Assembly (NCBI RefSeq): GCF_963676685.1
Contig: NC_092347.1
Coordinates: 70,804,001-70,868,000 of the forward strand
Direction of reading: 5' to 3'
Length of the DNA: 64,000 nt
Source: Mytilus edulis
Lineage: Eukaryota
A program made the position numbers and the translations under genes. Below the pieces are notes generated by a model. That model saw nothing but the letters and a program-made list of their open reading frames with translations. It made no database searches and was not told the origin of the DNA. Below are positions 707 through 63,724 of this stretch, piece by piece; within the stretch, counting starts at the first letter, position 1, and each line of letters begins with the position of its first letter.

Positions 707-897
707 CTTATCCCAGGCATAGATTACCTTAGCCGTATTTGGCACAACTTTTTGGAATTTTGGATCCTCAATGCTCTTCAACTTTGTACTTGTTTGGATT
801 TATTAATATTTTGATATGAGCGTCACTGATGAGTCTTATGTAGACAAAACGCGCGTCTGGCGTACTAAATTATAATCCTGGTGCCTTTGATAGCTAT
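707..897 (+). mobile_element. Retrozyme-like repeat fragment with minimal type I hammerhead motif (818-865; GAAA mutated to AAAA)
   Basis: gagcgtca-CTGATGA-gtct.tatgt.agac-aAAA-cgcgcg-TC-tggcgt; homologous to 13420-13631, 46647-46897 and 60620-61280. Confidence 0.8.
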
Positions 898-1731
898 ATT
901 CATACAGGAACTTCTTATGAAAAAAGATAAGAAGTTAGCAATATCCTTTAACTTTAAGTTCCATTATATAGATGACCTTTCTCACTAAATAATACAAAAT
1001 TTGGTGACTACATGTATTTTGAACTAATCTATCCCATCGAATTAGAGATAAAGAATACTACAGATACAATTGAGTGTGCCTCATATCTTGACTTACATCT
1101 AGAAATTGACAATGAGGATCGGTTGAAAACTAAACTTTACGACAAAAGAGATGATTTCAGTTTCTCAATTATGAACTTTCCATTTCTATGTAGCAACATT
1201 CCAGCAGCGTCTACATAAGGAGCATACATCTCCAAATCGATACGATATTTCGGGCCTTGGTTTTCCTACCATGATTTCCTTAATAGAGGATTGCTGCTCA
1301 CAAGTAGCCATTAAACCAAGAGGTCCAAATGGTGAATTTGAAATCATCCCTTCGTAAATTTTACGGACGCCATCACAAGTTGGTTGACCGTTATGGAATC
1401 ACCTTTTCACAGATGATATCGGATATGTTCCTTATGTCGTAACTAAAATAGCATTCCCTTTTCACGAATGCGACCTACCTGAGTTGTAATAACATAATCA
1501 ACACGACTTGGGCCACATGTGAAGCAGAATCTGCTTACCCTTCATGAGCACCTGAGATCAACCCCAGTTTTGGTGGGCTTCGTGTTGCTTAGTCTCTAGT
1601 TTTCTATGTTGTGTCTTCTGTACTATTATTTGTCTGTCTGTTTGTCTTTCTTTTTTTTTAGCCATGGCGTTATCAGTTTAGTTTCGATCTATGAGTTGAC
1701 TATCCTTCTGGTATCTTTGGTCACTCTTATT
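898..1731 (+). mobile_element. Decayed Penelope-like reverse transcriptase, 3' fragment
   Basis: YIDD motif at ~966-977, then SYLDLHLEID..TKLYDKRDDF..NFPFLCSNIP; frameshifts and stops. Same family as 45910-47821. Confidence 0.75.
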
Positions 1732-2342
1732 CATATCAAATTGACATATAATTGGTTTAAAATAGATAAATTTTGTAAAGGTAATTTTAAGATTTAGATG
1801 TATACACTAGATCTAGTCATAGTCAATAAAAGAAGTAATAGCATGCTGACAATTCGTGCAGATTGTAAGAAAAAAAAATACTATTTTCTAAACACGACAA
1901 AATCATCGGAAAAACAGAAACCTTTCCCACCAAATAGCAACGATTGTCAGATTCATTTTATAACTTTTTTTAATTGCCGTTACGTGATCGAGTTACATAT
2001 AATAAAAAGTTTTACAAATAATACCCGAAGTAGAAAAAAAGTAGCACAGCTATTTTAGCACAACTATTTCTATAGTATAGAGAAAAAAGTCTACATATAC
2101 TGTGTATAAATGGAACAAGTTAAATGACACATAAGAATGCAATTTGGATTTAAATCGTAGATTATATGGTTCAAGAGTATACGTTTGACGGGTAAGACAA
2201 CAACCTTTATCAAGTGTTATGATACGCGGAAACTGAATAGTTTTAAGAATAATATTGAATAAAACGCGCATCATCAAGTGATATTACTTTATAAATTTTA
2301 GTGTGATTGAAATCAAACCATAACAATGAAATATATGTAGTA

Positions 2343-7200: not shown

Positions 7201-10200
7201 AACGTGAAGGTATGAGATTATTTAAGGTGAAGTCATCAATATTAGGGTTTATGATATCATAATTTTAATCAGCATGTTAACTATGCTGAGGTTAATTTCA
7301 GCTTTACCAGTATTGGAATACAATGTACAATTTTCTTTTAACGTGTGTGAATTTAAATATCTGCATTAATGTTAATTCCTTAATTGTATGTTCCTTTCGT
7401 TACAAAATATTTAGAAATTTAAAGAAGATTATGACTTTTTTTTTTAAATCCTGTGAAACTGTATCACATGTTCATGTCATTGTCCTGATTCATGTTATAT
7501 GATATCAAATTAACATCAAAACGACGTTCTGATTGGATAACAGCGTCCTGAAGAATGAAAATTCAAATGTAAAAACTTTATATTCGTTTTAATTTACGAA
7601 CAAAGAAATTACTTATTGTCCAGTAAATAATGAATCGGTGAATAGACAAAAAAAAAAAAAAAATAAAAAAAAAAAACAACACCCGATCTGATATTATTAT
7701 GGATACTAATTGTATTTTAAGGTCCTTTTTGGCAACGTTTTCGGTTCTCAGACAATCTTGGCCTTCAAATATTTGGCTTTTAGCGTTCCCGATGAAGGAA
7801 AGCTCCAAGGACGCAACAAATTTATAACTTGTTTTTTTTCTAATGCACCAGATGCTCATTTTTATAATTCATGTCTCTTTACTGGTGTATCAATGCACAG
7901 ACTTATAACATATCTAAACTTAGTTGTAATGTTATGTAATATATGTGCATATGTTTTGAAACGGCAAATTCCATAGATTTCATTAACAATTGTTTAAACA
8001 GTGGAAAATGTTCTTTTGTGTGCAACCTTTGCAACAATTTTCATTTATTTGTTACAATGAATGAAAAAATTGAGGGATGAGAGTGTCTCACGTGCCCTCC
8101 CCCCAAAAAAAAACCCAAGTCCAAATGAGACTTTTAATCGATAGCCAATCCTATTCTGAAATCATTGACATGCATTTATCAAGAGATAGAATACAAACCA
8201 TAATGTAATTCACCTCATTTTTCAATTAAATTGCATTGAAAATTTCGAGCGAACAACACATGTTTGAAAACATAACAATAATTTCTGGACCTATGTGCTG
8301 TACGAATGAGAAAATAACCCGGACTGTAAAAAAGAGAAAAATGCCACTCAAATATACAAAACAAATCTTGACGTTCATACAAACCAACTTTGAATGCTAT
8401 ATCTTATACTTCTACTATCTAAAAACTATTTTTTCCTCACAATCTTTTATTTTCGAAAATTAACCGGTACTAAAATGCAGTATCAAACTTCTATTAATAC
8501 CTGATTCTGGAGGCCAAACTATTTAAAGACTTAAATCTAATACAAACGTTGAAGATATGAAAAAGCAGAGGGGACGGCAAAAGAAAACCAAAACCAGAAA
8601 AGGAGTATTTCTATATGAATAATACCTATGCCGTTGATATGGTGTTTCTTTTTGTTTGAAAATGCTTTTAGAACAGTGTATACAATTGTTTAACAAAAAC
8701 GCACACAGGAGTTAAATATATAGATAAATTGAGACATTACCATTGACAACGAATTTTTCAAAAAACTCATTCCATGTCATTGGAGGTACTCCTGTCTTTC
8801 CTTGTAAAAATAAATATTGGGAAACAGCTCTGTCTTTTGGGTTTCTGTTCAGATAGATAATTTTGTAACCATTTTCAACGTGCTTTCTTGGCAGATACTC
8901 CATTGGCAAATGTGTGTGGAAGAATCTTGGACTGTTCATTTTCTCCAGTCGGTCCCAGTCACTTTGACATTCAAAGTTACAAAAATTCAGTTCACCATGG
9001 CTGTTATATTCAGTCGTCCGATGTAAAAGCATGGACACTATTTCATGTACCCAATGTGTACCTTTGATAAATTAAAAAAAAAAGACACACATAACATTTA
9101 TATTTTTGTTTATCTCAATGTCCATTAGAGAAAAAGAAAACATCCGTTCATTGAGTTAGAAAACTTCGCCTCTCTCAAATTTTAGAATTTTATTGTCATT
9201 TTAACACGGCTGGTAATCTATGTATATATATATATATAGCTACACACGCAGAACAACTGATTCTGTAATGAAAACCGTGAGAGGATTTTCCGGTTGTGCT
9301 TGAATGGAATAATTGTCACCGCTTCAAAAGGTATGTACTTTTCTAAATCGCAATTTTCTAATTCTACTGATCAAATTATTGAAAATCGGAGAATGCTATG
9401 CTGTGGGAAATACTTTCACGAAGAGATACATGGATCATTTACTGTAGTCCATAGAGTAAAACTCATACAAAATCAATCGTCCCACAAGTAATTGCCGAAC
9501 AAAGTGGCAGTTGAATTCTCAGATGGTTCTATTTACAGACCTACAGGTTCATTTTTTTTTGCAGTCAACGGGATTGAATGTCGTTTTTGGCTGCGTGTAC
9601 GCTGTCCGAAATTAATAGACTTCCTAATAATTCTAAAAACTTCAAATATTCATTATTTCATGCGTGAGGGAATAGGTCCAGATTGAGGACATCGTGAATA
9701 CGTGAGGGAAAGAGCAAACGTTTTTTTTAATATTATGCATTGTGACCTTTCTTGACTCACTAACTATGATCAATGCTGATTAAAAGCATAGATTTTTCTA
9801 TATACTCTAATAGATGTACACTGATCACTAATTAGATAAAACCAAACTATTAATTGCTTGTTCAATTTCAGGAAATGCCATTATTCAATCATAAATCTTA
9901 AGCGCTTACAGTTACGTTTCCATTCCCATTGTCAATTTAATTTGGTAAAAACTTCAATAAAACTGTGCAAGTTACTAAATTATTTTCTCCGTCGTTTCAC
10001 TCCTAAGAAAAGAAAGTTTTTCTGAACAATAAATAGAGTTGTCTATAAAAAAGAAGATGTGGTATGATTGCCAATGAGACAACTATCCACAAAAGACCAA
10101 GTAGACAGCTCTCTCACAAGCAAAAAACCCCTAACTGTAAAAATATATCTGTTTGCTACAAGATCACGTTTAATTTAACACGATCAACATAAATATATAC

Positions 10201-13200
10201 AATCAGGCATACATAAATGCATCAATTTTCACCATAATGATACACAATATAAAAAAGAAGATATGGTATGATTGTCTATGAGACCAAATGATATAGAAAT
10301 TAACAACTATAGTTCCCTGCCTTCAATAAAAAGCAAAGCTCATACCGTATCAGTGATAAATTGCCTCGGAATGTCAAATGTAAAACAATGCAAACGAGAG
10401 AAATGTAATGATTGTTCCATTTTTTTTATACCAAGATATGATAGCACTTCACGTCACGATTTCATGATATCCTCAATCAGAACCGACCTCCTCACGCATA
10501 AGGATTTTAGATTTATTAAGACGTCTAGAAATTTTAGACAGCTTACACGCCGTCAAAATCGACATTCAATAACGTTCACAGAAAAAAACCTAAATTTTAA
10601 CTTGTATGTCTGTTTAAAGAACCATCTCAAAATTAAAAATGTCACTTTTTTTTAGGCAATTACTCGAGGGACGATGGATTTTTAGTTTTACACTATACGC
10701 ACCGGTAAAGTATACATGTATATCTTCGTTAAGGTATTAACCTGCTTCTTCTTCTTCTTTTCTGTAACTTCCTCCTACTAATGAGGAGCACATCCAATAA
10801 GGATTAAAACAGTTTATGGCTTAATAATTTTAGCGTATATATAAAATTTAGTCCTGGTATCTATGATGAGTTTAATTATATACACGGGCACAATATTGTT
10901 AATCATCAATAGGGCTTATACTACACGGGTAAAATTGGCGATGAGATCCATTTAAGAATATAGGACTTTAAAATGCACATACTAAAAGTTTTCATTTTCC
11001 ATAACACATCTATTTACACGATTAAATGTAAACAGTTCCCGGCAATTGGAATTTTTACAGTTAAAATATTGTTGATGTATTGAATCAACACAACATAGCA
11101 AGACCAGTTTAGAAATTATGCTATTTAGGTTTTAATGTCAATGAGGCAAGCATAAACAAGCACTGCAAGCCACATAATTAATTTAGCCATTGATGTTATA
11201 CAATCAAGCGTGCAACAGTCCAAGCACGAGGTGAAAATGAAGATTGATAGGCTACGTAAAGATGTAATAAAAATCCACTATTACTACTTTGATTTACTTG
11301 AATTCAGACGTTTCACATGTAGGTCATAACACATCTTTCGAGAGATAGTCTCTATATTGTTCATTAGCTCTGAATCGTGCTGTAAATATTCGGTTGCAAG
11401 TTTTCTGCAGTAATTAATTGACAGATAATGTCTCTATTTCTAAATTTTTCATTCCACTGATCATTTCCAATTTTAAGGATAATTCTCTGTTTTATTGAGC
11501 CAAAATAATTTCTACGAATTCCTTCGAGAGCTAGACATCTGGTGATAAAATGTGTCAGATTTTCATCTTCAGTAAAACAAATAGGGCAAGTTGCATCTAC
11601 ATTTTCGATCCCAAATTTTGCTTTATTACATTGTAACATATAGGTTACTGTAAAAATTCTTGCCACGACAATGGGTCGTTTTGTTTCTCCCGGGATATTA
11701 AGATCTGAGTTCCAAACTGGGTGAGATTCACCAATTTTGATTGAGTTTGTATCTAGACGATTTAATGTTGATTTTTGATCTATTTTCAGTCCTAAAAGTG
11801 TCGTTCCAAAATACTGAGATTGCATATCTTACTGAATGCTTCCAGCTGATTTTTGAAGGTGCATTACCCCATAGTTCTTCTATTGTTGGCAGATTATATT
11901 GCTGTAAAACGGAATCAGTTCTTTCTAAAAATGTACCTTTATTTGTTTGGACACGGAACTGACGTAGTAGAATTTCTTTCAAATTTTGATTTTCAGAAAC
12001 TAAAATGGAGTGGAGAAGGCTCAATTGTCGTTTATGAAGCTCTACTTCAAGAGAAAGAGCACCTAATAGCGAGTAGATCCCTACTGAGGCTGTCCTAGTT
12101 GGCAGTGGTTGAATGTTTCTAAAAAAGGTTAGGTGGAAGTCACTAAGCGCCTTAAGTTGTGTTAAATTCAATGGTAGTACCTCTAGAGTGAAAAGAAGAC
12201 GTGGCAAAATAAATATTTTGTATATATTATAAGGTATGCAGGGGTTTAACCAATTTGTGCCGTGTGCCTCAGTTTGCATTAGTGAGTACGATGTTCTTCT
12301 TGCAAGGCTTATTGTCTTCAATAATTAGCATGTTTTCGTTTTTTGAAGATCTAGTTATTCCTAAATGAGTGGCTCTGTCAGATGTTGTTAAATTCCTTTC
12401 CCCTAAATTCCATGCTGATAGAGACTCCTTGTTTTTTATTTGATGAGTTTGCGTTCTGATTTAATAATACACTTTTAGATGGATGAATTGTGTATTGGTG
12501 TTCATTTGAATAATTGTTGACCGCATTGAGCATTTCTTGCATGTCTTCATCTGAGTTGGATAAAAAGAGAATGTCATCAGCACAGGTTGGGCAACCAGAA
12601 AAAATTGTCCCGATATGAAGCCCTACATTTGACTCTTCCAGTTGAATGAGCAGATCCTCGATATAAATTTTGTAGAAGTGGGTAGAGAGAATACCACCCT
12701 GACGGACTCCTTGATTTATCAGGAAACTAGTGCTGTATTTTCCTTTCCAATTAATTCTGGAAGTTAGATCGTGGTACGTCTCGTAGATGGTCTCCCAGAT
12801 GTCCAGTGGAATATCTCTTTGGAATATAAAATTGAGAATGGAAATGGGGAATGTGTCAAAGAGACAACAACCCGACCAAATAAAAAACAACAGCAGAGGG
12901 TCACCAACAGGTCTTCAATGTAGCGAGAAATTCCCGCACCCGGAGGCGTCCTTCAGCTGGCCCCTAAACAAATATATACTAGTCCAGTGATAATGAACGC
13001 AATACTAATTTCCAAATTGTACACAAGAAACTAAAATTAAAATAATACAAGACTAACAAAGGCCAGAGGCTCCTGACTTGGGACAGGCGCAAAAATGCGG
13101 CGGGGTTAAACATGTTTGTGAGATCTCAACCCTCCCCCTATACCTCTAACCAATGTAGAAAAGTAAATAGCTTGTCCAGGAGTATGTCATGGTTGACAAC

Positions 13201-16200
13201 ATCAAAAGCCTTTCTTGTGTCAAGGGTAGCCAAATGAAGATTTTTTTTCATTTGTTTTGAGTTTATTTGTGCTTCTGATATCAGAAGAGCAGCCATGAAT
13301 GGGGATAAACATTGTGTGAAGCCAAATTGTTGAGATGGATGATTTTTCAGTTTTTCCATAATTTTATTTAGTAGAGAGTGTTCAAAGGTTTTTCCTAATA
13401 TTGAGGAGACAGTAATACCTTTCGAAAAACTAAGGATTTTCTTACCCCAGGAGTAGATTACCTTAACCGTATTTGGCACAACTTTTGGGAATTTATGGTC
13501 CTCAATGCTCTTCAACTTTGTATTTGTTTGGCTTTTTAACTATTTTGATCTGAGCGTCACTGATGCGTCTTATGTAGACGAAACGCGCGTCTGGCGTATA
13601 AAATTATAATCCTGGTACTTTTGATAACTATTATAACTGTCAAGTAGACTACAATCTTTTCCCTTTTTACAGACGGGAGTAATAATTCCGGATTTAAATT
13701 GTTCAGGTATTCTCCTTTCTTTAATTATTCGGTCAAAAATAAGTTTCAGTATTGGCGTAACTTCTGTACCTGCCAATTTCAGATGTTCCGCAAATAGCCC
13801 ATATTCATCACCAGCTTCATGATTTAAATTTCAAATAGCTGTGCGAGCTCCAGTTAGATCTTTCAGCGGAGTTGACACATTTGTAAATAATCTTCATCGT
13901 ATTGATCACAATTTTGAGGAGTTGCTGATTGTTTATAGTATTTTGTAAAAACTTCATTTTGATGTGCCGGGCAGCGTATTTCCTGATTTTCATGTAGAAT
14001 GACCGGGGTATTTGAATTTGCTGTATTTAAATTTCTTTTAATAAGTTTTTAGAAAGTTTTTGTTGACGGATTTTGCTCAAGTTGATGGTAAAAGTTTTCC
14101 TTTTCTATTGCCCTTTCTTTACGTAGGATTTTTCTGGCATTGTATTTTGCTTGCTTTAGTTCAACATAAGACTGATCATTTCCTCTTTGACGGTCTTTTA
14201 GATCCCATACTTTGTGTTTTTGCTTGCTTATTTTGAGAAGCTCCTTTGCTTCAGGTGACACTTTTAATTTAGGCCCATTTAACTTAATGATTCTAGAAGG
14301 GATTGGAAGTTTTTCCGCCTTCTTTAAACATACTGTTAGGAAACCAACGAATTCTGTTGTTGTTAAGTCATTTTGAAAATGTTCTGATAGTAGTGCATTC
14401 AGTTTAATTTTCTATTGACTTATATTACCTCTGTCCCATTCAATTTTGTATTTAACTGTTTACTGATTTTTTGACTGAATTTTAAATGTTGTTAATTTTG
14501 CAGCTAGGTTGCACAGAACTTGTACATGTGTTGACAAGTTTGAATATGACATATCAATGATAGTTATTTTATCAATTATGTCCTCATTTGTGGCCAGAAT
14601 GTAGTCAATCTGAGATGTTGCTTTGCCATTATGGTGGAAAAAGGTGTCTTTTGACGAGTTAGTTTTGTTTATCCAATTTTGATTAATTGTAAAAGTCTGT
14701 AGAATTTTGTCATGATGATTTGTCGTAGAGGATTTTAATGTCCCATGTAAATCATCGCAGAGAACTGTTGTTAAATCCGAATATTTTTCTTTAATGTGAG
14801 TGATGATGTCTAAAAATTCTCTGTATTTAACCTCGGATTTCGAATTTGTTGTAGGCATACAAGTGTTGTTAAAGCAGATATTTTGATTGTTGAGCACTAT
14901 CTGGATTGCCATAATTCTGGTATTTCCGTCTGAAAATTTTTGTATGAATTTATTCATTGACTGTGGCAACATAATTGCAGTCTCAGCCTGTCCACGTGGA
15001 GATTTAAAGTTGAGAATAGGATCATCGTCGTTATGGGAACGGATTAATACGGTGTACAGAGGAAAGTGTTTTTGTAAAAAGTCCTTTTCGAAACCCCAAA
15101 GCAAGTGTTCTTGTAAGTAGATAATTAGTGAAGGATCTTTTGCCAAATATTTTAGATGGTTGATGTTTTTTTTCACTCCCTCCACATTAAAAGTTAGTAG
15201 TTTTTTTCCCTGGTGAAAGTCAAATTGTCTTTGGTAATGTTGGGAGCTTTTTCCCGAGGCGGAAGGTATAAAAATGATGATTTCCTTGATCAGATCGGCC
15301 ATTTGTATTTCTTTCCTGATTGTTATCTGTGTCTGAAGGTAAGTTTTCTTCGGTTGAGCAATGATCATGATTTTCATTGCAGAACCAATTGTTCGTTGTG
15401 TGTAGATTATCATCCGTGTTTAAAGGAGTGACTGGTGAAATATAATGTTTATTCAATTCTTGACCAGACTCAGGATTCTGTAATTCAGTGGTTGTCGTTT
15501 GTTTATGTGTTACATATTTGTTTTTCGTTCATTTTTTTTTACATAAATAAGGCGGTTAGTTTTCTCGTTTAAATTGTTTTACATTGTCTTATCGGGCCTT
15601 TTATAGCTGACTATGCGGTATGGGCTTTGCTCATTGTTGAAGGCCGTACGGTGACCTATAGTTGTTAATGTCTGTGTCATTTTTGTCTTTTGTGGATAGT
15701 TGTCTCATTGGCAATCATACCACATCTTCTTTTTTATGTTGTCTTCTGTGCACGATTTTATTATTTTTTTGACTCGTATCGTATAATCGTAAAAAATATA
15801 TTCTCGTGGTCTATTATGATGTGACAACATGGCAGCTAATTAAAATTGTCGTGTTTTTAAGCAAAAGTTAACCAATTGTCACCTTAGTAAACAATTAACA
15901 AAGAAGCATGGATATTAAGCACGTGTATAACATGTACAATAAGATAATACTTTATTTCAATGACAGATCTATGCGTATTGCGATCATCGGAATTTTATGA
16001 GAAAGGTAACACTGAGTTCACTGCATACGGAAAATACATCGGCGAATTGTTAACTGGAAGCAAACAATTAAAAAATGTGAAAATCTTCTAAACTTACAGA
16101 TTATGGTTTTTTTTTAGTAAAAGGTACATGAACATTAGTTTTATGATAAGAACTAGCCATTAAAAGAGGGACGAAAGATACCAAAGGGACATTAAGTTAT

Positions 16201-20129: not shown

Positions 20130-20563
20130 TGACAAAAAAAAAAAAAAAAGAAAAACCGCTTTTTTCCACAAACATGTTACGTCTGTATTTCTATGCTTAT
20201 TCAACTATAAACGCTCATTTTAAATTTTAATGCCCTTGTCATTCCATGAATAACTTCGCATTAAAAAAGCAATATCGGAGCATGGCGAATATACATATTT
20301 TGCTAATCATTTCAAATTCTTTTTATGAAATCATTACAATACATGTTTCCAAAATTTCAAAGAAATCAAATCGATAGAAAGAGTATAGTTATCCACATGA
20401 TGAAAAACGGAAACTTCACATAGTTCAAACAGCATTTAAACTCTTGGTGAATTTTATACAATTTGAAAGTTAACATCATATCCCTTCATTTCCCGCTGAT
20501 ACAGTTTTTCGAGCAGTTCATTTTGTTCGACTGTAAACCAGTTTTCCAAATCTCCAATTATCC
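20130..20563 (-). pseudogene. Orphan SULT terminal exon (20563-20454) plus 3' UTR; relic of a fourth copy
   Basis: atcag|GIIGDLENWFTVEQNELLEKLYQREMKGYDVNFQIV*. The exon and its downstream DNA align by eye with copy C 4231-3745. I found no upstream exons between it and copy B. Confidence 0.85.
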
Positions 20564-22929
20564 CTGATATGAAATGAACGAGTATCCAACTTATCAATAT
20601 TTTTATAACTAATATGAGGAAGGCGCTACCTTAAATGCCAGCTTTCAGGGATGATTCCACTATATAGTTTAGGGCCGCTAAACGGCCCTTAAATCGGCCG
20701 GCGGCCCCAACAAATTGTTTGTAAATATAAATTCCCAATTCAGGAAAATAAAACAAAAATCGGTATTTCCGGAAAAGTTTCTGTCACTGATTAGAGCAAC
20801 TATAATTTTTCATAGTTTGTTGTCAAAACGTAGTAAAATCCGGATGAAAATTCTGACTATGATCGCATTTTATTAACAACGATTTAATTATGTCAACATG
20901 AGGTAAACAATTTTAGCGGCCGGATTCAATTGAAGTTAAAATGTTATGGGAGTATTTGGTCTCGTAAAAGTAGATCGCTCAGCAGGTTGATAAAAAATAT
21001 GCTTTTTGTCAACACCGTGTATCATCAGTACACCGGATATATTATAGGTACTAACCAAGCGGGCATGATCGATTTTGACCTTACAAGGTAACGAAGATCT
21101 TTGTTTAACTTTATCAATATTCAATGTACATTTCTCAACATTTGAAATTCCTGCTCCTAAATAATTTTTGCATCGATTGTTTTCCTATTCATAAAACAAC
21201 TTTGATATTCAAATAAGAACAATTAACTTGTTCATGCGCAAATAGTTGTGAAAGTCAACACCCACTTTCAATTTCGATACAGTTGTTGAGAAATTTACAT
21301 GTTTTATCTGACAGAAACCTAATACAGGGCAACAGTAATAGTTACCAATCATAAACCTACCTGTGATTACTCATTCCTTGAAACTGTTTGGGTAATAAAC
21401 GAGTATGAAAATAACGTTTTTGTGTACGGGGTACAACAACTTAACTATGCACCGTACATAAGGATTTATGTGGTCAGCTAAACACCGTACACAACGCTTC
21501 TTTAGGGATAAAATATATGTATGAAAGATTTCAATGCCAAATATTGAAACAGCTATACTTATTACACACACACATTGACCTTCTATCAGAAAAAGAGTTG
21601 CAATGAATATAGAATGATATCAGATGAGACGAGGGCCAACTTCTTTTACAAGTATTTGCACATGCTTTTAGTAATCGTTCTTGTTTTGGGAAAATAATTA
21701 GACATCTCTAATCATCAACCTACGACCAAAAACAACAATTATGTTTAGATTGAAGTACACATTGATATTATGTGAACAAAACGAAGATTTTTCATTACCG
21801 TGTAAGATCAAAATCACTCGTCCGCTTGGTTAGTACCTATATCCGCTGTACGATGATACACGGTGATCAAAATGGGTGTCAAAACAAACCTCGGCAAAGA
21901 GCAAATTCAAATTTTTGATATAACATTGATGAATGAATTATAATGGTAAAAGCAGATCGCCCAGCAGAGCCGGTTATGTAATTTGATTAAAACTTGTTTT
22001 GTAGAAGAAATTAGTTTATATTTTGCTATTTTTTCCGCAAAAGACAAAAGTTTGAGCGTTTTAGAAAATAACGTTGATGATAGACCATTCATGAAATGAA
22101 ACCCCCCTCCCCCTGAAATACGATGTCATCATTATGGAACTGTTTCAAAAGATATGAAAATGATCCAAATAATTTTAAAGTTCACTGGTTCAATTGCTTT
22201 AAATATCTTATCAATTAAAGTATATATATACTTTTGTAATTGCTTTTCTGAATTCGACAATTGGCCAGTTCTATTTAAATACATTTAAATCAAGGTAAGT
22301 TTATAAAGATGATCTGTTGAAAAAATACCCAATGGATGATTTTTTTCACTGGTTAATATGGCAAGCCGTCAAATTGCTATTTAATCTAACTTCAAGATAT
22401 CTCATAAACTTTATAAGATATCTTATATAATAGTTCATTAGAAATTTGATATAGTTTGAAAGATGTCTTATAAAGTTTATAAGATATCTTATATAGTTCA
22501 CGAGATATCTTAAATGATTTATGAGATATATATAATTTTCTTTATCAGATATCTTATAAATCATATAAGATATCTTATAAACTATATAAGATATCTTATT
22601 AAAGTAAATTTGTAAGATATCTTATATAAAGTATATTTATAAGATATCTTATCTAAAGTATATTTGTAAGATATCTTATATAAAGTATATATATGTAAGA
22701 TATATATTTTAAAATCGATATTAGATATCTTCTATATTATATAAGATATCTTTTTTATATAAGATATCTTATAAAAAATATTATTTATGATATCTTATAT
22801 ATTATAAGAAATATTATTAGAGATATCATATATAAATTATAAGATATAAGATATAATTTTCTTAATATGATATCCAATAAATTATATAAGATATCTTATA
22901 CAAAACATATTTATAAGATACTTCATATA

Positions 22930-45909: not shown

Positions 45910-47821
45910 ATAAAAGAGGGACGAAAGATACCAGAGGGATAGTCAAACTCACAAATCGAAAACAAACAGACAAACAATAGTACACATGACACAGCATATA
46001 TAACACTGAAGAATAAGCAACACGAACCCCACAAAAAACTGGGGGTGGTCTCAGGTTCTTCGGAAGGGTACTGCTCGTCATGTAGCACCAGTCGTGTTGC
46101 TTAAGTTATAACAAATCCGGTAAAGGGTCTTATTCGGTAGGTTATATTTATGAAAGGGAAGGGGATTGCAGTTACGACGTAAGGAACTTTTCCGATATCA
46201 TCTGTGAAACGGTTATTCCATAACGGTCAACTAACTCGTGGTGGCGTCCGTAAAATTTACGAAGGAGTGATTTTAACTTCATCATTTGGAACTCTTGGTT
46301 TAATAACTTCCTTGTTAGCAGTAACCCTTTATCGAGAAAGGTATGATAGGAAATAAAAGCACTGGAATATCGTATCAATTGGGAAATATATACTCCATAT
46401 GCAGGTGCTGCTGAAATGTGTTTCACTTGGAAACGGAAAGTTCACAATTGGAAAGCTGAAATCATCTCTTTTGTCGTAAAGTTTTGTTTTCACCCGACCC
46501 TCATTGTCAATTTCTAGATGTAAGTCAAGATATGAGGCTGACTTAAATGTATCCTTGTGCCCTTTATCTCGAGTTCGATTAGATAGATGCGTTCAACATA
46601 GTCACCAAATTTTGAATTATTTAGTGAGAGAACATCATTTATATAGATAAACTCATCATAGATACCAGGACTAAGTTTTATATATATGCCAAACGCGCGT
46701 TTCGTCTACAAAAGACTCATCAATGACGCTCGAATCCAAAAAAGTTTAAAAAAAAAAAAAACCAACCAAATAAAGTACGAAGTTGAAGAGCATTGAGATC
46801 CAAAATTCCTAAAAGTGTTGCCAAATACAGCTAAAGTAATCTATGCCTGAGGTAGAAAAGCCTTAGTATTTCAAAAAATTCAAAATTTTGTAAACGGATA
46901 GCGGATAGTAAATTTAAATGATATTGCTAACTTCTTATCTTTCTTCCTAAGAAGTTCCTGTATGAAAATAGCCTTATAATAACAAAGAAACAAGTCGGCA
47001 AGAAGAGGGGCACAATTGGTTCCCATTCGAATGCCAACCGTCTGTTGAAAAACACGTCCTCCGATCGTAACAAATATGTCAGTCAAGAAATCAAGCATCT
47101 TGATAATGTCAGATTCAGAGAATTTTTTGTTTGAACCAGAGTGATCCTTTACAAAGTAGGATTTACACCTCCCTAAGACAAGATACTTGTATTTACGTTG
47201 GACATTTTTTTTTTATGAAACAAAGCAATACCAACTCTTTCAATTTGTCTTTTAGTTTGGAATGTGGAATACTTGTGTAAAATGTCGAAAAGTCAAATGC
47301 TTTATTACTATTGCAAGATAAAAGAGAGTTAGATTGTATGTACTCTAAAAGGTCTTTGTAATTTTTTATTATCCACATCCGATTCACGCCACCTGTAGAA
47401 TACGCAGTTTCACAATAACTTTATCCCAGCTTTGATTGCTGATGAAATAGATGTAAATAATTTAGAAAGAGGTTTAGTGGAGCACTTGGAAGACCCAGCT
47501 ATATACCGTTGAATAAAGTTTATGTATCCAATACAGTGAGGGAAGATACAGTTTTTCATCTTCGGTTGAAATTCCGAAGAAACATACACCTATGATTATC
47601 TAGGATTTCCTTTTTGGTAAGTGTCGTGAGGGTATATGTTGAGTTTAAAAGTGAATTCTAAATACCTAATTCGTTTATCAAGCAGTTAATGTAATGAGTT
47701 TTAAACACAAAAACGATGTTGGTTTGGACTTTATCTGCAGGGACAACAACATATTTGTCATGGAGGTCGGTTAAGTGTTTTGCAACATTTGGGTCGTTAA
47801 GGATTGACGTAGCATGGGCAT
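45910..47821 (-). mobile_element. Decayed Penelope-like RT element
   Basis: VVPADK, FDFSTFYTSIPH, QQTVGIRMGTNCAPLLADLFL, RY/INDV, LRQKRDDF-like and APAYGVYISQLIRY motifs across frameshifted ORFs. Confidence 0.8.
46647..46897 (-). mobile_element. Retrozyme-like fragment inserted in the RT catalytic motif of the Penelope-like element
   Basis: Minus strand reads gagcgtca-tTGATGA-gtct.tttgt.agac-GAAA-cgcgcg-Tt-tggcat; ATAG is duplicated at the junctions. Confidence 0.8.
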
Positions 47822-48902
47822 GGTTTCAACGTAGACAACAAGAAGATTTGGAGGCTCAAAATGTGCGTTTCGTGTTTATTTTATAAGGAGAGATAACATA
47901 CCAAGAAAAATCGGATTTCAAAATAGCGGCTTCCTTAGTTACGGACTGGTAAAAAAAAGTGTTTGTCAACGTGCAATGAAAATTATCGTTACAAACGAAT
48001 TGCATTAGAATGTTGATTAAACAATTGGAACAGGTGGACACAAGTTCAACAAATAAAACGGATGTTGTGTCAATAAAATCAACCGAAAATTGGTTCTGGA
48101 ATGACCAGGAAAGACTAAAATCTCATAAACCTATATAAGGCTCGCATAGATCCTAAAATCACGATAATGTTTAATGTAAGAGTCATTACCAATACCGAGA
48201 AATGCAAATAGTCAATGACAAATAATTCTGGGATTTTTGATATTACGTAACTTTCAGCATTTTCACTCCTTCCCGCTATTCCCTAAATTATCGCCATCTT
48301 ACTTTCGTTTCTCTCTTCCTGACAACTACTAGTTTACAATCAGTACAACGGTATTCCGGGCCAGACGGAGACATCGGAATAGTAGATTAACTCGAAGTGG
48401 GATATTGTGCAGCAAAGGCAAATGCACCAGCGACTTTAGACATGTCCTTATCTACGCTATCTTGAACCATCAGTGAAGATCCAACCTGATACATTTTACA
48501 CAAAAGAGGACAGTTAAATATAAAAAAAGTTATACTATTAGACTGATCAGAACAATGGAAGTATAGAAGTATTATGTAGCCACACTGTTTCCAACGATCT
48601 GTTACAGACCGATACATTCTATCAGGTACAAAAGCAACTGCGCGAACACGCAAGGAGTTCATAACTAGATTAGTCAATGTATCTTGGACCCATGTTTTAT
48701 CCACCAATTTCTACATAAAAAAGGTCTGTACCAAGTCATAAATATTGTCCATTCGTTTGATGTGTTTGAACTTTTGATTTTACCATTTGCTTAGGGAAAT
48801 TCCATTTATAATTTTTCTCAGAGTTTGGTACTTTTTGTTATTTTTGTTTTTGTGTTCTTACTAGACAAAATCTAGTTTATATGTACAGTGTAATCAATCT
48901 TA

Positions 48903-50556: not shown

Positions 50557-53500
50557 CTAAAATTAAAAAAGTCTTCAAAATATATCATTCAATCTTTAGG
50601 ATAGGGAATCAGAACTTCATTTCAACAGTATGGATGACGATTGTATCTTACTATATTTATAATTTGGAAAAAAAACATTACGTTATTAAAACTGTTCGTA
50701 ATGTCAAGTTCTTTATCATGAATGGTCGGCATAAGGTTTGCATTAATTAATGTATCATCGAAGAGCTGCAGTTGGCAAGAAAAGACACAAAAGACAAAAC
50801 GACATGACTATTTTACCATGTAAAACTTAGAACGGTTTTGCTAAAGTTGATTTCTAATCCCTTAACCCCACCTTTTAAACTATAATTATCGAATAAAATA
50901 CACAGAATAGGGAAAGCTGATCCTTAGTTTCTTCCTTAAAAAAATGCACGAATCTAAGTAATCGAATACAATATATCGGAAATAACTCCAGACAATTTTG
51001 CATTTGCACCTTTTGACAATGTTGTGAATTATTTTATTGTTTTTGACTATACATATTGCAATTCTTCTTAACTAATCTTTATTTATGCAAGATTCTTTAT
51101 TGTTTCGTAACAAAACCGTTCAAGGTACGAAAAAAATTGGGCTCTTATATTTTTTTTTAAATCTCGCCACATGATCAATGTGATGATCTTGGTTTTAGTG
51201 ATTTTCTTTGTTAGTCATATACCGTGTTTGTTTTTCATTAATATTATTGTAATACAGATCGTTGGAGTTTTCTCTTCCAATGTTTACAACTTTGTCGTAA
51301 CCATGTCTCTTTATTTATTCATACATTACCTTTTCGCCAAATAACTGTTTTACCAGAATTTATTGTTGATGGTACATCAGTCTTATTATTCTTCATATTT
51401 GTAAAAGAACATTTATCGGCGATGTCATGGATATATCTATCGTCAGCTGATACACCAAGAAACGTCGCAAGTTCCCGAATTGTAGGAATAGTAGCCTTGA
51501 AAAGATGAAAATACATGTATGACTATGTATACAACGTTTGAATCGTCATTGTTGTAATTAAGTTTTTTTCATTCCAAATCAAATATGCACCGTTTCTAAT
51601 TTATCGATAACCTACCGATTTCAATGCACGTAAATACCTCTGCCACTTTTAAATCCATTTACAATACGGATAAAAATACGGATTTTGTGCTGTTAAAGAT
51701 TATATCTTTAAGGATTCAAATTTAGGAATATATCTCCCCTATGTAGTACAGCTCTGATTCCTTGTCCGACTTTGGCTATACCTTCTTGTCCTTTTTGGTT
51801 TCAAGTATTTCCTCTTTTAAATGTGTTTGGATTTTCAATTATTTTGACCTCGAGCATCATTGAAGAGACATCGAAATGCGCATCTGGCGCAGAAAATGAT
51901 ACCGTTTTTCGTAAAAATACGGAATTGTGCTTTTAAAATTTGCTATGTTAACAGTTTGACAGTAACAGGTCCTATGATGTGTTTCTATTTTTACAATGTA
52001 AGCACGGTGGATGTATAATGGCATTCTTACGTCTAGACTTTAAAACGTTTGGGATCATGCGTTTTTTGTATTTTTTGATAACTTTCAAAATATGCACAAA
52101 ATTTTTTTAAACCAATATAGGATATGTTAAAAATACAAAACGATGTTCAATATATATTGAACGTCATTTACGAAAGCAATAGGATGGTCGTTACTTTGTT
52201 CTTGAAGGAAAACAAATAGAGTACGAAGTCAAAAGCATAATGGGCCTTAAATTTTAAAATATCAATGATGGTCCGAGACCACAATTAATTCTCAGTGCAT
52301 TTCTTTTAGAACATAAATGTAAATCAAAAAAATCCCACCTGCGATTTCTCAATGAAATTTTTACAGTATGTTGTGTTACCTTTGGGACGAATTAGATTAG
52401 AATTATAGAAAACTTCATCGGCTCTAACTCAAAATATGGACAATTTTATGTTTAGGGCGTCTTGAAATCTTTTGACAGCTTCCGAAGTGCTAACTTGTAA
52501 CCTTTTTCAGCTGGACCAAATCACTACTTTCCTTTAAAATTCTGGACCCAATTTTTTTTACAGTGTAATTTCACCCCCCCCCCCCTACTTGCAATCTGAG
52601 GCATAAAACATGGAGAAATAAATCTGGAAGGGGTATAAAAAAATATTGGCAAGTAACCCACTGTCAACACTAGGGACTATCTTTGTGGACAACGAAAATC
52701 ATGGGACGACAATTGTGGTCTCTGACCTGATAATTCATTTCGACATAAAATTGCTGATTACTGGGCTGGTGACACCATTGTCGTACGTTGGTTATTATGT
52801 GTCTGTTATTTGTATCGACTTTTGTTGTTCTGTTACATCACTGTCTCAGGTTAAGGGAGGATTGGGGTCCCGCTAACATGTTAACTCCGCCACATTCTGT
52901 ATGTGTCTGTCCCAAGTCATGAGCCTGTAATTCAGTGGTGGTCGTTTGTTTATGTGTTAGATGGTGGTTTTTCGTTCCATTTTTGTACATAAATCAGACC
53001 GTTAATTTTCTCGTTTGAATTGTTTTACATTGTCATTTCGGTGTCTTTTATAGCTGACTATGCGGTATGGGCTTTGCTCATTGTTGAAGGCCGTACTGTG
53101 ACCTATAGCTTTTATTTGTTTGTGCCATTTTGTTTTAGTGGAGAGTTGTTTTTACTGGCAATCGCCCCAATTCTTTTTTTTTTTATATATACTAGTTGAT
53201 AAATGTGGTCTGGTTTGTTTTTATGATTACTGTTATCCTGTTCGTATTATATACATGTAGAAATCTACTTACGAATTCATACGAATATATACAAAATTAA
53301 TCAACAAATCGCAGGACTTAACAAAAATATGACAACAGAATCAAGTTCAATATTCTTTTTTTGGGGGGAGGGGGGGAAATAAGGGTAAAAAGTAAAGCAA
53401 AATCGATTAAAGAATATGGGTTGTTTTGTTATATACAAATAACTCAACTACCGACTCTTTGCAATTACAAGTTTTTAATCATTTCTGTAATGACTAACTT

Positions 53501-59500: not shown

Positions 59501-62500
59501 GAATAGAAAATTAAACAATCAAGTTTGATATAAAATATGTAACATTTATAATGTTCTTTCAAATTAAAAATAAAAGCTTTTGTAATGAGAATCTATTATA
59601 TTTGCTACAAAAAGTAGGAGAGTTCGCTTTACATTCTTTTTGAAAAGGTCCATTATATGACTTATCTTTCCTTAAATGGCGAAATAAAAAATAACTGCAT
59701 CGATAAAAAAAAATGATGTATTTGTAAATACAGTCCTGAATCATTGACACAAACATACACTTCTTTATCTTGATGAAAAGTCAATCACATTAATTATAGT
59801 CAACTCTCAAAATGTGCACATTTCATTACAGATCCAGACCGATTGTTACTGCCCTCCAACCCTTCAACATGAGTTTTATTTAGGTTTATAGTGATTCATA
59901 TATTTAACAGACTTTTTTTTAATGGAATGACTCTTCAATTGTGTGTGCTTTAATTATTTCAGAATGATGTTTACGTTGGTACCTACGGCGGTCTATGCAA
60001 ATGGTAGTCATTAAACTTTAAATTGCATTTGTCTTTAAATAAAATTATTACGTTTTTATGCACATTGTCAAGGGAGCGAGCTGATCCAATAGTCAGGCGA
60101 TGATTTTATTTAATGACTCTTCGTCTGATTTTTTTAATCAGAAAATGACAGTAAGTGTCAAATCGTCATGTAACACTGTTATAAGTGCACGGTACCTTTT
60201 GATACTTTTGACCTTAAAAATACAATATATGTGTATATTACCTGATTTCATTGCCGAACACATTAAGACATCTGTTTCACGAGAATTAAAGTTTCTCACT
60301 GAGCCCATAAACTTATCTACATCTTTCTTCGTAGGTGACATGTGTGGTAGTGTCATACCTTCATATTCATTGAAGGGGTAAAATGGTCTTACCTTTCTGA
60401 AAATAGTTATAATATATATATTATTATCGCTATTTTACGAAATTTTCGTTTGATCTTACTGACTGATTATTTTAGATTATCGTTTGTCATCTCAAGGAAA
60501 TTGATTTTCTCGCTTGATCCGTGACGCCAAAAGTGAGAAAAGCTCATGCGCTCTAAGTTTCAAGCGATAATTTTTCTTATCACTTTACTGTGCTCAGAAA
60601 AGAAACTATCAGTCAATTAGTTTTCAGCACTCTGTGCTGACATGAGTTATCATTGATATGGTCATATTTATAAGTTAACTGTTTACAAAACTTTGGATTT
60701 TTGAAATACTAAGAATTTTCTTCCTCAGGAAGAGAAAACCTTAGCTGTTATGGCATAACTTTTAGGAACTTTTGTCCTCAATGCTCTTCAAACTTCGTAC
60801 TTAATTTGGCCTTTTAAACTTTTTTGGATTCGAGTGTCACTGATGAGTCTTTTGTAGACGAAACGCGCGTCGGCGTAAATACAAAATTTAATATAAGTAT
60901 CTATGATGTCATTGAGTTTATTTACAACCACTGTGTCGATGCCACTGCTGGTGGAGTTTTGATTCTCCGAGGGTATCACTAGCCCAGTATTCAGCAATTC
61001 TGTGCTCACATGAGTTATCATTGATATGGTCATATTTATAAATCAACTGTTTACAAAACGTTTGAATTTTTAAAATTCTAAGGCTTTTCTACCTCAGAAA
61101 TAGAAAACCTAACTAGGTGTATTTGGCAAAACGTTTAGGAATTTTGGTCTTCAATACTCTTCAACTTCGTACTTATTTTTTTTTTTATTTACTATTTTGG
61201 ATTCGAGTGTCACTGATACTGTTGTAGACGAAACGCGAGTCGGCGTAAACATTAATCTTGGTGTCTATGATGAGTTTATTCAGATAAAAAAAAAATCTCG
61301 TAAATTAACGATAAGCCCCGTTCTTAGCACAGAAGAGTGATATGTGATACCAATCACATTGTTTTAGCGTTTGTTTTTTTAAAAAGAAATGATTCATGTA
61401 ACCTGCAGATTTATTAGATTTTGGTTTACATTTATCGAACAGAGCGTAAAATAGAACAGCCACAGACACGACATACCCACCTTATCTGAATTCATTTTTT
61501 ATGACCGTATTTTTCCTATTAGAATCGAAAAAACGCTCAGGATAAAATTCAAATACCACGGCCTTCTCCATATGTAAATTTCCAACAAATCTATGGCTTC
61601 CATGAATCATTTCTTAATCAACTACGTTTTTATATTGTGACATTTTGACTGAGCGTGGATTCACATTGCGAGTCATGTATGTCTAGCATCTGATTTAACG
61701 TCCCAATTCTGATCGGACGGTCTGTACTCTTTCATTCTGCACAGCTTACCGTACGGTCATCTTTGGAGAAGGTTAAACACCCGGACGGAGGAAGGCCAAG
61801 GGTAACCATATTTCTATATTCCAGTCATCCAAGGTAAGGCGAGGGTTGGTACTCACAAATATATATCTTGCATGTGCCGTACAACATCAGAAATTCAGTA
61901 AATGTCATTGGTGGCTGTCTGTTATATGTATATTTTTTTTATTGTTGGCATAACTGAGACCGTCCGGATTGGTAACTAATTGGTCTTTTCGGAGCCCTTT
62001 ATATATGATTATATAATATTTTGAAGCTACCTATCTTTTTTTCAATGTTTGTTTTCTAAATAGAATAAAAGCAAACATTCGGAATTAAAACATGGTAAAT
62101 AAAGAGTCAATAAACAATATATCTACATTGTCGAAAAAATAAAATCTATGCCTACGAGCGTTACAAACAGGACGATTTAGCGAGCCTCGCAGAGATTTTC
62201 CTATGTTTCGTATCGCGTACAAATACATTTTACATTTCAACAATTATTAACACATACTGCAATTTACACCCGGTACTTGAGCGTTAGTTGTTAAAATCCA
62301 AATCGGGTAAAAGTTTAGTCCTACTATACTATTAACTTGCTTCTACTAAAATCACTTTTTAATTTCTATTTATGTTATTTTAAATATATAAACTTAATCC
62401 TCCGATCTTGGAGGTGTACGGGTTGATAATTTAGTCTTAAACGCATTATTCTTTTATGAAGGTTAGTGACTTTGAGCTAACAGTAAGTTAAAATGCGAGT

Positions 62501-63724
62501 ACCCTCAGATCTGTACCTGTATGTGTCTTTTTGTTGTTCGGATGTACAAGTACTCGTCCACGTCCACTTGTATTTGTATCCATTTGATGAGTTAAGCCTT
62601 TTTAAACTAATTTTTATAGTTCGTTCTAATGTTGCACTGTTATACCACTGTCACAGGTTATGGGGAGTGTTGGGATCCCGCTAACATGTTTAACCTCGCC
62701 ACATTCTGTATTTATGTGCCTGTCCCAAGTCAGGAGCCTGTAATTCAGTGGTTGTGGTTTGTTTATGTGTTACATTTTCGTTTTTCGTTCATTTGTTTTA
62801 ACATAAATTAGGTCGTCAGTTTTTTCGTTTGAATTGTTTTACATGATCATTTCAGGACCTTTTATAGCTGACTATGCCGTATAAGCTTTTCTCATTGTTG
62901 AAGGCCGTAAGGTGACCTATAGACGTTTATTTCTGTGTCATTTTGGTCTCTTGTGGAGAGTTGTCTCATTGGTAATCCTACCACATCTTCTTTTTTATAT
63001 AATCATGAAACATTTAAACAACCAACAAAGAACGCATTATTATCATTTTTATGGTAATTATTCTCCGTATAAAACCATATTTTGGTGTACCCTGTAAATT
63101 TTATAAAATTGTGACAACAGGAACTTAGCAAAACATACATAATTATAAGATGCAATGATTTTTCTATACATTTCAAATCAATTTAGTTGTATGGTTTTTT
63201 TCCCCGTTCACTTTAACTCGGAGGACATTTTTTAACATTGGACACCCAACTCGATATTTCAAATAGAATGACCCAAACCAATTCAATGTACACACATGTT
63301 TCTTTTAATGAATGTGAAAATTACCTATAACATATTAATTAAAATGGAAATAGATAGTAATTCAGTAGTAAATTTGACCTTTACGGGACGGATCTATAGA
63401 TATAACGTACTGTGGATTCATTTATTTTCGTGGGTATAAATTTTCTTGGATTGCTGAAAACTTGCATTTTCGTGGATATTTGATTTCTTGGTTTTGACAA
63501 TCCCTGTATACAAGGCTTTTGAAAATATGTTATTCGTTGAACATTTGAATTCGTGGTTCACATGTACCCACGAAACCCACGAAAATTGATATCCAACGAA
63601 TAATAATGAAACCACAGTAATTACTTTCAATATTAAGCCTTTTAATGATCATATAGTATTTGTATAAATTCCTATTTTGAAATGAAAAGTATTTGTAAAA
63701 TTACCTTTTCTCTTTCTCCGCCAT
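50444..63724 (-). CDS. Cytosolic sulfotransferase (SULT1-like), copy A, intact, 291 aa, 6 coding exons
   Basis: Exons 63724-63705, 60396-60242, 58272-57955, 53623-53520, 51495-51330 and 50556-50444 (20+155+318+104+166+113=876 nt). All introns are GT-AG with matching phases. Motifs: 5'-PSB loop MKSGTHW, catalytic THLP, 3'-PB YLNRNPKDRAVS, C-terminal RKGIIGDWKNLFTVAQNE. Confidence 0.92.
51330..51495 (-). CDS. SULT copy A exon 5
   Basis: ATIPTIRELATFLG..IADKCSFTNMK..VIWRKG|gtaatg. Confidence 0.9.
52270..52727. mobile_element. MITE with 4-bp TSD
   Basis: TIRs GGTCCGAGACCACAATT / AATTGTGGTCTCTGACC; TGAT on both flanks. Confidence 0.75.
52790..53190 (+). repeat. SINE-like interspersed repeat
   Basis: Same family as 15469-15737. 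Confidence 0.7.
53520..53623 (-). CDS. SULT copy A exon 4
   Basis: DSVYGGWFSFTKEFEKAVSQKRNNILPITFENLIT; 104 nt, AG/GT bounded. Confidence 0.88.
55709..56592. repeat. AACGGA/TCCGTT motif-rich DNA-transposon-like fragment
   Basis: Dozens of AACGGA(C) motifs in direct and inverted blocks; ends ..GGTGTGACCAAGGC-TTA. Left terminus not seen. Confidence 0.6.
56621..57067. mobile_element. Fold-back (palindromic) MITE with TAG..CTA termini
   Basis: The outer ~75 bp are perfect inverted repeats (TAGAATGAAATTCAAAACAGTGTGGCTGTGGCC..); complementarity continues almost to the centre. Confidence 0.85.
57069..57540 (-). repeat. Interspersed repeat whose 5' end is the post-cleavage part of the hammerhead repeat
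   Basis: Minus strand begins atctggagtattgaattttaaacctggtgcctttt (cf. gtctggcgta..aatcctggt) and contains the CCAAGTCAGG core. Confidence 0.55.
57955..58272 (-). CDS. SULT copy A exon 3
   Basis: GTHWVHEIVSML..PRFFQTHLP..IIYLNRNPKDRAVS..FVLN; AG/GT bounded. Confidence 0.93.
59115..59180 (+). ncRNA. Degenerate type I hammerhead motif
   Basis: gagcgtcaCTGATGggtcttttgtagaaGAAAtgcgcgTCtggcgt. Other decayed copies at ~7782-7815, 25445-25490 (-), 29594-29640, 51851-51890 and 58825-58857. Confidence 0.6.
60242..60396 (-). CDS. SULT copy A exon 2
   Basis: ttttcag|..KVRPFYPFNEYEGMTLP..NFNSRETDVLMCSAMKSG|gtaat; 155 nt as in copies B and C. Confidence 0.9.
60620..61280 (+). mobile_element. Tandem (~1.8 x ~370 bp) non-LTR retrozyme-like array with two hammerhead motifs
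   Basis: The unit repeats at 60625 and 60992. Hammerheads at 60831-60876 (core intact) and 61204-61246 (decayed). Confidence 0.82.
60831..60876 (+). ncRNA. Minimal type I hammerhead ribozyme motif (best-preserved core in the window)
   Basis: gtgtca-CTGATGA-GTCT.tttgt.AGAC-GAAA-CGCGCG-TC-ggcgt. All core nucleotides are present; one base of stem I after the GTC site is deleted relative to sibling copies. Confidence 0.75.
62460..63000 (+). repeat. SINE-like interspersed repeat (longest copy)
   Basis: Same family as 33560-33955. Confidence 0.75.
63410..63617. mobile_element. Mariner-like MITE
   Basis: TA|CTGTGGATTCA .. TGAAACCACAG|TA. Confidence 0.75.
63705..63724 (-). CDS. SULT copy A exon 1 (MAEKEK-R)
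   Basis: ATGGCGGAGAAAGAGAAAAG|gtaatt. Paralogous to copy C exon 1; phase 2 fits exon 2. Confidence 0.75.

Follow-up and report, generated by a model that had tools for sequence, protein, structure and literature searches.

Does the tandem repeat at positions 60619–61280 of this stretch of the Mytilus edulis genome (contig NC_092347.1, 64,000 nt, hereafter the window) still encode working ribozymes, and what copied it into place? The first-pass annotation described a ~370-bp unit present ~1.8 times inside intron 1 of a SULT gene, with a full hammerhead in each unit, and regarded it as a genomic copy of a non-coding mobile ribozyme, probably mobilised by Penelope-like reverse transcriptases (RTs). 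In the reading that we consider probable, the repeat is a decayed, 5′-truncated, two-unit retrozyme whose ribozymes are predicted to be inactive, and which a Naiad RT likely copied from a circle short of one junction base.

The repeat, its ribozymes and its host gene

The features of the repeat and of its host intron are as follows.

60397–63704 (minus strand): intron that hosts the repeat (first coding intron), in a SULT1-like sulfotransferase gene
60619–61280 (plus strand): retrozyme insertion of 1.8 units, 5′-truncated at about +110 of the monomer, its 3′ end lying at the fixed point of the family (+46)
60834–60876 (plus strand): hammerhead of unit 1 (core 60840–60846, stem II 60847–60859, GAAA 60860–60863, cut-site C 60871)
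60872–61241 (plus strand): monomer expected from double cleavage, 370 nt
61207–61246 (plus strand): hammerhead of unit 2, with a broken core, a shortened stem II, a stem III mismatch and U1.1 missing

The annotated period and copy number were borne out. Two head-to-tail units, 82 % alike across ~290 bp, place the cut-site C at 60871 (unit 1) and 61241 (unit 2), a spacing of 370 nt, and the insertion length of 657–662 bp corresponds to 1.81 periods of the 363-nt family unit (locus L001), the unit here being ~365 bp. No clear target-site duplication (TSD) was found at the locus, the coding frames across the repeat are just short chance ones, Tandem Repeats Finder missed the repeat and the 370-nt monomer showed no excess folding stability over shuffles (z 0.41). 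About ten dispersed fragments had also been reported; we recovered nine more family-1/2 pieces and two third-family pieces in the window, and none of the nine fragments examined has an intact core and stems.

The 60619–61280 repeat is, with near certainty, a copy of the published Mytilus non-LTR retrozyme family, a class that the annotation had rightly described as known from mussels. Long stretches match the 375-nt Mytilus galloprovincialis retrozyme of Additional file 11 of PMC4918200 (by eye, no alignment), and the family unit (363 nt, 37 % GC, non-coding, in arrays of 1–8 units) fits the short, low-GC tandem unit expected of such elements (150–450 bp, no LTR, PBS or PPT). In M. galloprovincialis, repeats of 350–390 bp with type I hammerheads are accompanied by abundant circles and RtcB ligation, circles dominate the RNA of the family, and Penelope-like elements (PLEs) have been put forward as candidate helpers (PMC7229834). 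We counted 2,701 exact 37-nt family-1 cores and 17,403 normally spaced motifs of families 1 and 2 in the M. edulis genome. The element is already known, and the locus itself is an ordinary fossil. Compared with a majority sequence from 67 full genomic units, which themselves average 96 % alike to it, unit 1 is 91 % and unit 2 90 % identical. The two window units have 9 substitutions in common, 5 of them missing from four relatives checked, and 16 private substitutions each, pointing to one template and then ~5 % drift per unit.

The case for a hammerhead at this locus rests on family homology, because the loose pattern CTGANGA..GAAA occurs in the window at chance level (6 observed versus 3.55 expected, no excess) and Rfam returned no match at gathering score anywhere in the window. 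In a search with hammerhead models, as the annotation proposed, an intact copy of the family matches Hammerhead_1 (RF00163) over all 45 positions (32.5 bits, E value 1.6e-6), just below the gathering cut-off of 34. Rfam also aligned unit 1 to a type III hammerhead at 26.5 bits (cut-off 48.5); this alignment has no stem I and was rejected. The family motif is type I, with stems I, II and III of 6, 4 and 2 bp, and in a comparison of three families (8 distinct rows) 4/10 pairs, spread over stems I, II and III, are changed on both sides, changes that reflect one family split rather than many events. Dimer-dependent hammerheads of the minimal PLE type have truncated stems and cleave poorly as monomers; the first-pass description of a minimal hammerhead did not hold given these stem lengths and the self-cleavage of the cloned Mytilus monomer at ~0.1 per min (PMC7229834).

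In unit 1, the core, stem II, the 2-bp stem III with its GCGC loop and the GUC triplet are kept, while U1.1 (the base directly after GUC) is missing and stem I carries a C>T change at 60835. Unit 2 shows the same stem I change and U1.1 loss, and a 3-base loss turns its core into CTGATAC. A full hammerhead in each unit is thus true only of the core and stems II and III of unit 1, and the label of mobile ribozyme holds for the family while both ribozymes of this copy are damaged. Predicted stem I pair probabilities are ≤0.04 in unit 1 versus 0.80–0.99 in an intact copy. Thermodynamic folding disfavours the hammerhead even in an intact family copy (−5.7 versus −13.1 kcal/mol), so energies do not enter the verdict; it is from the loss of pairs and core bases that the unit 1 ribozyme is predicted to be inactive and that of unit 2 to be dead. 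Intact hammerheads in two consecutive units, the mark of an active copy, are not present at 60619–61280, and judging from its sequence this copy is unlikely to yield a 370-nt circle.

The annotated position inside SULT intron 1 was confirmed by a contig of run X1 (presumed RNA), which connects the SULT exon at 60241–60396 with the ATG exon at 63705–63724 and terminates at an AG upstream of the ATG. Since a non-coding exon further upstream is possible, the intron is established just as the first coding one. Protein comparison put Mytilus sulfotransferases closest, among them a SULT1 from M. coruscus at 93 %. The gene lies on the minus strand and the repeat on the plus strand, making the repeat antisense, so that the SULT pre-mRNA would contain no ribozyme, and there is no sign of function from the repeat's place in the intron. 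The window also holds a tandem cluster of three SULT1-like genes with a lone extra last exon at 20466–20564 (cluster 4113–63724, minus strand).

Reads across the repeat come mostly from other copies, because in run X24 the 46 reads with loose ends at 60871 go on with the family's U and 21/28 reads have the family's C at 60835. Among reads reaching the cut site, none specific to 60619–61280 as a retrozyme source was seen, and reads at the cut site fit circles and tandem transcripts alike. Small-RNA run X21 contained few family reads, mostly sense, with no pile of begins or ends at the cut site.

Could the two units nonetheless form an active pair, giving a 370-nt circle or regulating the SULT gene? 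The parts kept in unit 1 would allow for it, and the palindromic stem III could permit dimers, as it can in type I ribozymes (PMC7229834). We regard this as highly improbable given the U1.1 loss and stem I mutation in both units, the broken core of unit 2, the near-zero predicted stem I pairing, the antisense orientation, the lack of any other intact fragment in the window and the lack of locus-specific reads.

Insertion ends and the hairpin shared with Naiad elements

Four further features bear on how the family is copied.

60927–60990 (plus strand): hairpin of the Naiad type, with its homologue at the point where Naiad Penelope-like elements begin (5′ start)
61259–61280 (plus strand): terminal TGGTATCT-like motif plus 14 nt up to the fixed 3′ end, a spacing that matches Naiad 3′ ends
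45910–47900 (minus strand): remnant of the likely helper family (Naiad), comprising a broken RT and the 3′ UTR; the retrozyme piece 46638–46895 interrupts it at the YIDD motif
51718–51906 and 7844–7887: third-family copies in the window, with others at L202:1501–1914 and L218

From 30 loci fetched with the ribozyme core as the sole criterion, 2 were set aside for overlap, and L042 and L043 appear to be duplicates. Of the 28 distinct loci that remained, 26 stop at +45 to +54 past the cut site, forming a single end cluster. Their 5′ ends are scattered by variable truncation, they have no poly(A) and no clear TSD, and the flank matches at most loci are 4–7 nt and AT-rich only, where the TSDs of metazoan retrozymes, if there are any, exceed 4 bp. 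The fixed 3′ end directly precedes a ~60-nt hairpin in common with Naiad.

The block shared by retrozyme and Naiad spans 70 nt (84 % alike, E value 2e-16), with a local score of 98 versus 31.5 ± 3.5 in 100 shuffles (highest 45), and it folds to the same hairpin in both; over 13 distinct rows, 98 % of cells are paired and both partners are altered in 2/22 pairs. Conservation ends 14–15 nt past (C/T)TGGTATCT in 26 retrozyme ends and in 30 Naiad ends, the latter selected on the motif itself. Retrozyme and Naiad thus have a terminal cis signal and an insertion end in common. The hairpin core, with at least 7,464 occurrences in the genome, also stands at the start of Naiad consensuses already in print, from seven bivalves and two hemichordates (PMC8557442 supplement; 11/12 matches viewed, one unrelated); the parts of the PMC8557442 text examined do not mention it. 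The hairpin at 60927–60990 is likely an RT binding or initiation signal.

A third retrozyme family, of 351-bp period, also has the Naiad hairpin; each of the three stems of its hammerhead has changes on both sides. Recurrent internal deletions between the two GTCT words of the hammerhead, which remove stems II and III, were observed in L178, L190 and other rows.

The candidate helper has intact 1000-aa frames in 3370-bp tandems and carries an N-terminal GIY-YIG together with CxC and DKA. Naiad elements are characterised by these features, a C-terminal RT and the lack of a canonical hammerhead (PMC8557442), and L156–L163 display them. Pfam placed GIY-YIG at aa 135–172 (E value 0.034) and RVT_1 at 645–854 (E value 8.5e-5), both below Pfam cut-offs, and no hammerhead core was found in the helper (best local score 24). 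Near-identical intact copies, L156–L163, occur on several contigs and suggest a young, probably active family that differs from the published Naiad_Mgal. Fragments of RT in the window come from this family with intact frames.

On the shared hairpin and common end, a Naiad PLE is likely the helper of the mussel retrozymes, the hairpin comparison having covered Naiad among the Penelope-like clades of this genome. The mobilisation that the annotation thought probable, by Penelope-like RTs such as those present here, is likely to that extent, with the qualification that this Naiad has no hammerhead core. A 2020 review stated that no motif points to a retrozyme helper (PMC7761336), and our literature search, with subscription papers, Repbase and Dfam outside it, found nothing on a link between mussel retrozymes and Naiad.

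A different, hammerhead-bearing PLE of the Poseidon or Neptune type could instead be the helper, the Naiad hairpin being merely captured. Retrozymes of Xenopus do resemble the pLTRs of canonical PLEs (bioRxiv 10.64898/2026.07.22.740005), and the mussel hammerhead cannot derive from this Naiad, which has no such core. We consider this improbable, as retrozyme and Naiad stop equally far from the same motif, right before the same hairpin, and as the 30 loci with the hairpin core, among the matches listed, comprised 2 Naiad, 28 retrozyme (of three families) and 0 other PLE.

Several window loci bring these elements together. The piece at 46638–46895 (minus strand) is a 5′-truncated family-1 copy exactly at the YIDD codons of the Naiad RT; it shares the orientation of the RT and may carry a 4-bp duplication, CTAT. 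At 714–1750 (plus strand), a family-2 piece ends at the fixed 3′ end on a 5′-truncated Naiad in the same orientation (junction 714–902), representing either a nested insertion or a template-switch chimera. A frameshifted non-LTR retrotransposon remnant (11364–15419, minus strand; RVT_1, E value 2.7e-12) has a retrozyme piece inserted near 13420–13600.

Loss of U1.1 and the template for copying

The position of the fixed end would constrain the template. On a cleaved linear monomer, RT would start with just 46 nt left before the 5′ end, so copies longer than 46 nt would need a circle or an uncut multimer. Cleaved linear RNA as a common template had been suggested by 3/26 best-hit arrays that begin ≤2 nt from the cut site and by a 46-nt stub in the window (10833–10878, plus strand), which begins at about the cut site and reaches the fixed 3′ end. 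This candidate was rejected, as the genome-wide start pattern has no pile-up there: starts at +1 account for ~4/100 rows listed, with 1–7 per neighbouring position (by eye; 165 matches, 30 script-checked).

The missing base at the cut site bears on the choice between circle and multimer. Motifs without U1.1 number 69 in the genome, versus 17,403 with normal spacing. A single base is missing from the six that surround the cut in 125 motifs; of the 100 listed, 55 have lost U1.1, 11 either of two Gs and 4 C17 (by eye). A control stretch in the hairpin has 11 deletions over six positions (in at least 7,464 hairpins). U1.1 loss therefore affects ~0.4 % of motifs versus ~0.03–0.05 % per site for the neighbours and the hairpin control, a difference of about tenfold that is rough for the latter because the anchors differ. 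In family 1 alone, the excess is smaller (~10 U losses versus 5 G losses; 100 rows, by eye). Among one-base insertions, an extra C at the junction is the commonest (5/23).

We fetched 50 loci covering 60/69 U1.1-less sites and found the loss in both subfamilies. A tree of 88 rows (199 columns, junction base removed) needs 16 changes for U1.1 loss on the best tree, of which at least 4 are forced by well-supported branches; 55/85 inner branches are weak, 16 rows were dropped as short and the intact rows are biased to family 1. Five U1.1-less loci on different contigs (L035, L083, L093, L094 and L108) form a well-supported clade, which suggests that ribozyme-dead copies can still spread; given such spread, or duplication as a lineage, 69 motifs are not 69 events. 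U1.1 loss is present in every unit of 12/15 multi-unit arrays, including an 8-mer and 60619–61280, and 3/15 are discordant. Multimers are no more frequent among U1.1-less copies (15 arrays across 51 loci versus ~8 across 28). Array-wide sharing fits a rolling circle, an uncut tandem template and later amplification equally, and cannot tell them apart. A DNA- or RT-level hotspot is also possible, because U1.1 closes a small inverted repeat, AGACG..CGTCT.

That U1.1 loss is a scar of ligation, carried into the genome by reverse transcription round the circle, has, in our estimate, an about even to somewhat better chance of being correct. The literature search, limited as above, found no report of a junction scar in retrozymes, and the observation is a fresh addition to the published picture.

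The same family with the same Naiad helper could also have used uncut linear tandem transcripts as template, circles being a by-product and the U loss a hotspot or the mark of a few amplified lineages, shared by descent. In the Poseidon PAc element, RT starts at a fixed internal site in dependence on RNA 3′ of the start and favours AT-rich targets; ribozyme cleavage is dispensable for insertion, ribozyme mutants inserting normally, and the main substrate is unprocessed RNA (PMC11167929). Naiad itself forms tandems without a ribozyme, and both the supported clade of five U1.1-less loci and the 3 discordant arrays agree with an uncut template. We nevertheless think it unlikely, if worth keeping in mind, since such a hotspot would have to be the exact base 3′ of the scissile bond, recurring in both subfamilies, with an extra C at the same junction as the commonest insertion; moreover, the ribozyme is kept in three families with compensatory changes, and circles dominate the published RNA (PMC7229834).

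Under the circle reading, tandem transcripts would self-cleave at GUC and then be ligated to circles, as published for M. galloprovincialis. The Naiad protein would bind the hairpin, nick AT-rich DNA and begin cDNA internally, just 5′ of the hairpin; rolling round the circle would give the 1.8-unit and longer arrays. Where U1.1 was lost before ligation, every unit would be copied from a circle without U1.1, as may have happened with both units here, each of which would have drifted by ~5 % after insertion. Extended to the family, mussel retrozymes would be ribozyme-circularised parasites of a hammerhead-free Naiad, the fixed internal start at +46, set by a phylum-spanning hairpin, would make circularisation necessary for copies of full length, and the U1.1 loss would be a fossil of cleavage, imperfect ligation and germ-line rolling-circle reverse transcription. 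We offer this general model tentatively, as a proposal whose chances fall a little short of even.

Comparison with known systems

The locus adds a known element, and the mechanistic gain is modest. The family-level features bear on a published open point, namely, the identity of the enzyme behind the copying of animal retrozymes, its start site and the role of the circle as the actual template. From the shared hairpin come a candidate for that enzyme, of which intact copies exist, and an RNA signal of 60 nt; the proposed junction scar offers a test of the circle model from sequence alone, and a hairpin that steers a Penelope-type RT round a small circle could serve as a tool.

The closest known system is the M. 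galloprovincialis retrozyme (Cervera & de la Pena 2020, PMC7229834; Cervera et al. 2016, PMC4918200), which is alike in sequence (by eye) and in its 350–390 bp tandem unit, and likewise has a type I hammerhead with a 2-bp stem III, low GC (37 % here) and thousands of copies; in contrast, the 60619–61280 copy is damaged. PMC7229834 names two ribozyme families and ~5000 motifs, whereas we find three families and ~17,400 motifs of families 1 and 2, and the parts of that paper examined contain no fixed 3′ end, helper motif or junction deletion.

The Naiad clade (Craig et al. 2021, PMC8557442) shares with the retrozyme the hairpin at its 5′ start, the terminal motif spacing, 5′ truncation and partial tandems, and likewise inserts in AT-rich targets without a clear TSD. 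Naiad is autonomous (GIY-YIG and RT) and has no hammerhead; the retrozyme carries a hammerhead but codes for no protein. The intact Naiad found here belongs to a different family from the published Naiad_Mgal, their N-termini differing (by eye).

In Xenopus, retrozymes share sequence with a PLE terminus and a PLE is the proposed helper (Li, Clavereau & Pollet 2026, bioRxiv 10.64898/2026.07.22.740005). That study concerns vertebrates and canonical hammerhead-bearing PLEs, and the words mussel, hairpin, initiation and junction have 0 occurrences in the text available. Poseidon PAc of Anolis (Frangieh et al. 2024, PMC11167929) is reminiscent of the mussel retrozyme in its fixed internal RT start downstream of a hammerhead and its AT-rich targets. 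PAc differs in being autonomous, in having the ribozyme inside its own ORF start and in forming no circle, and it uses two start sites that give a 30–40 bp tail, whereas the mussel retrozyme has one end cluster.
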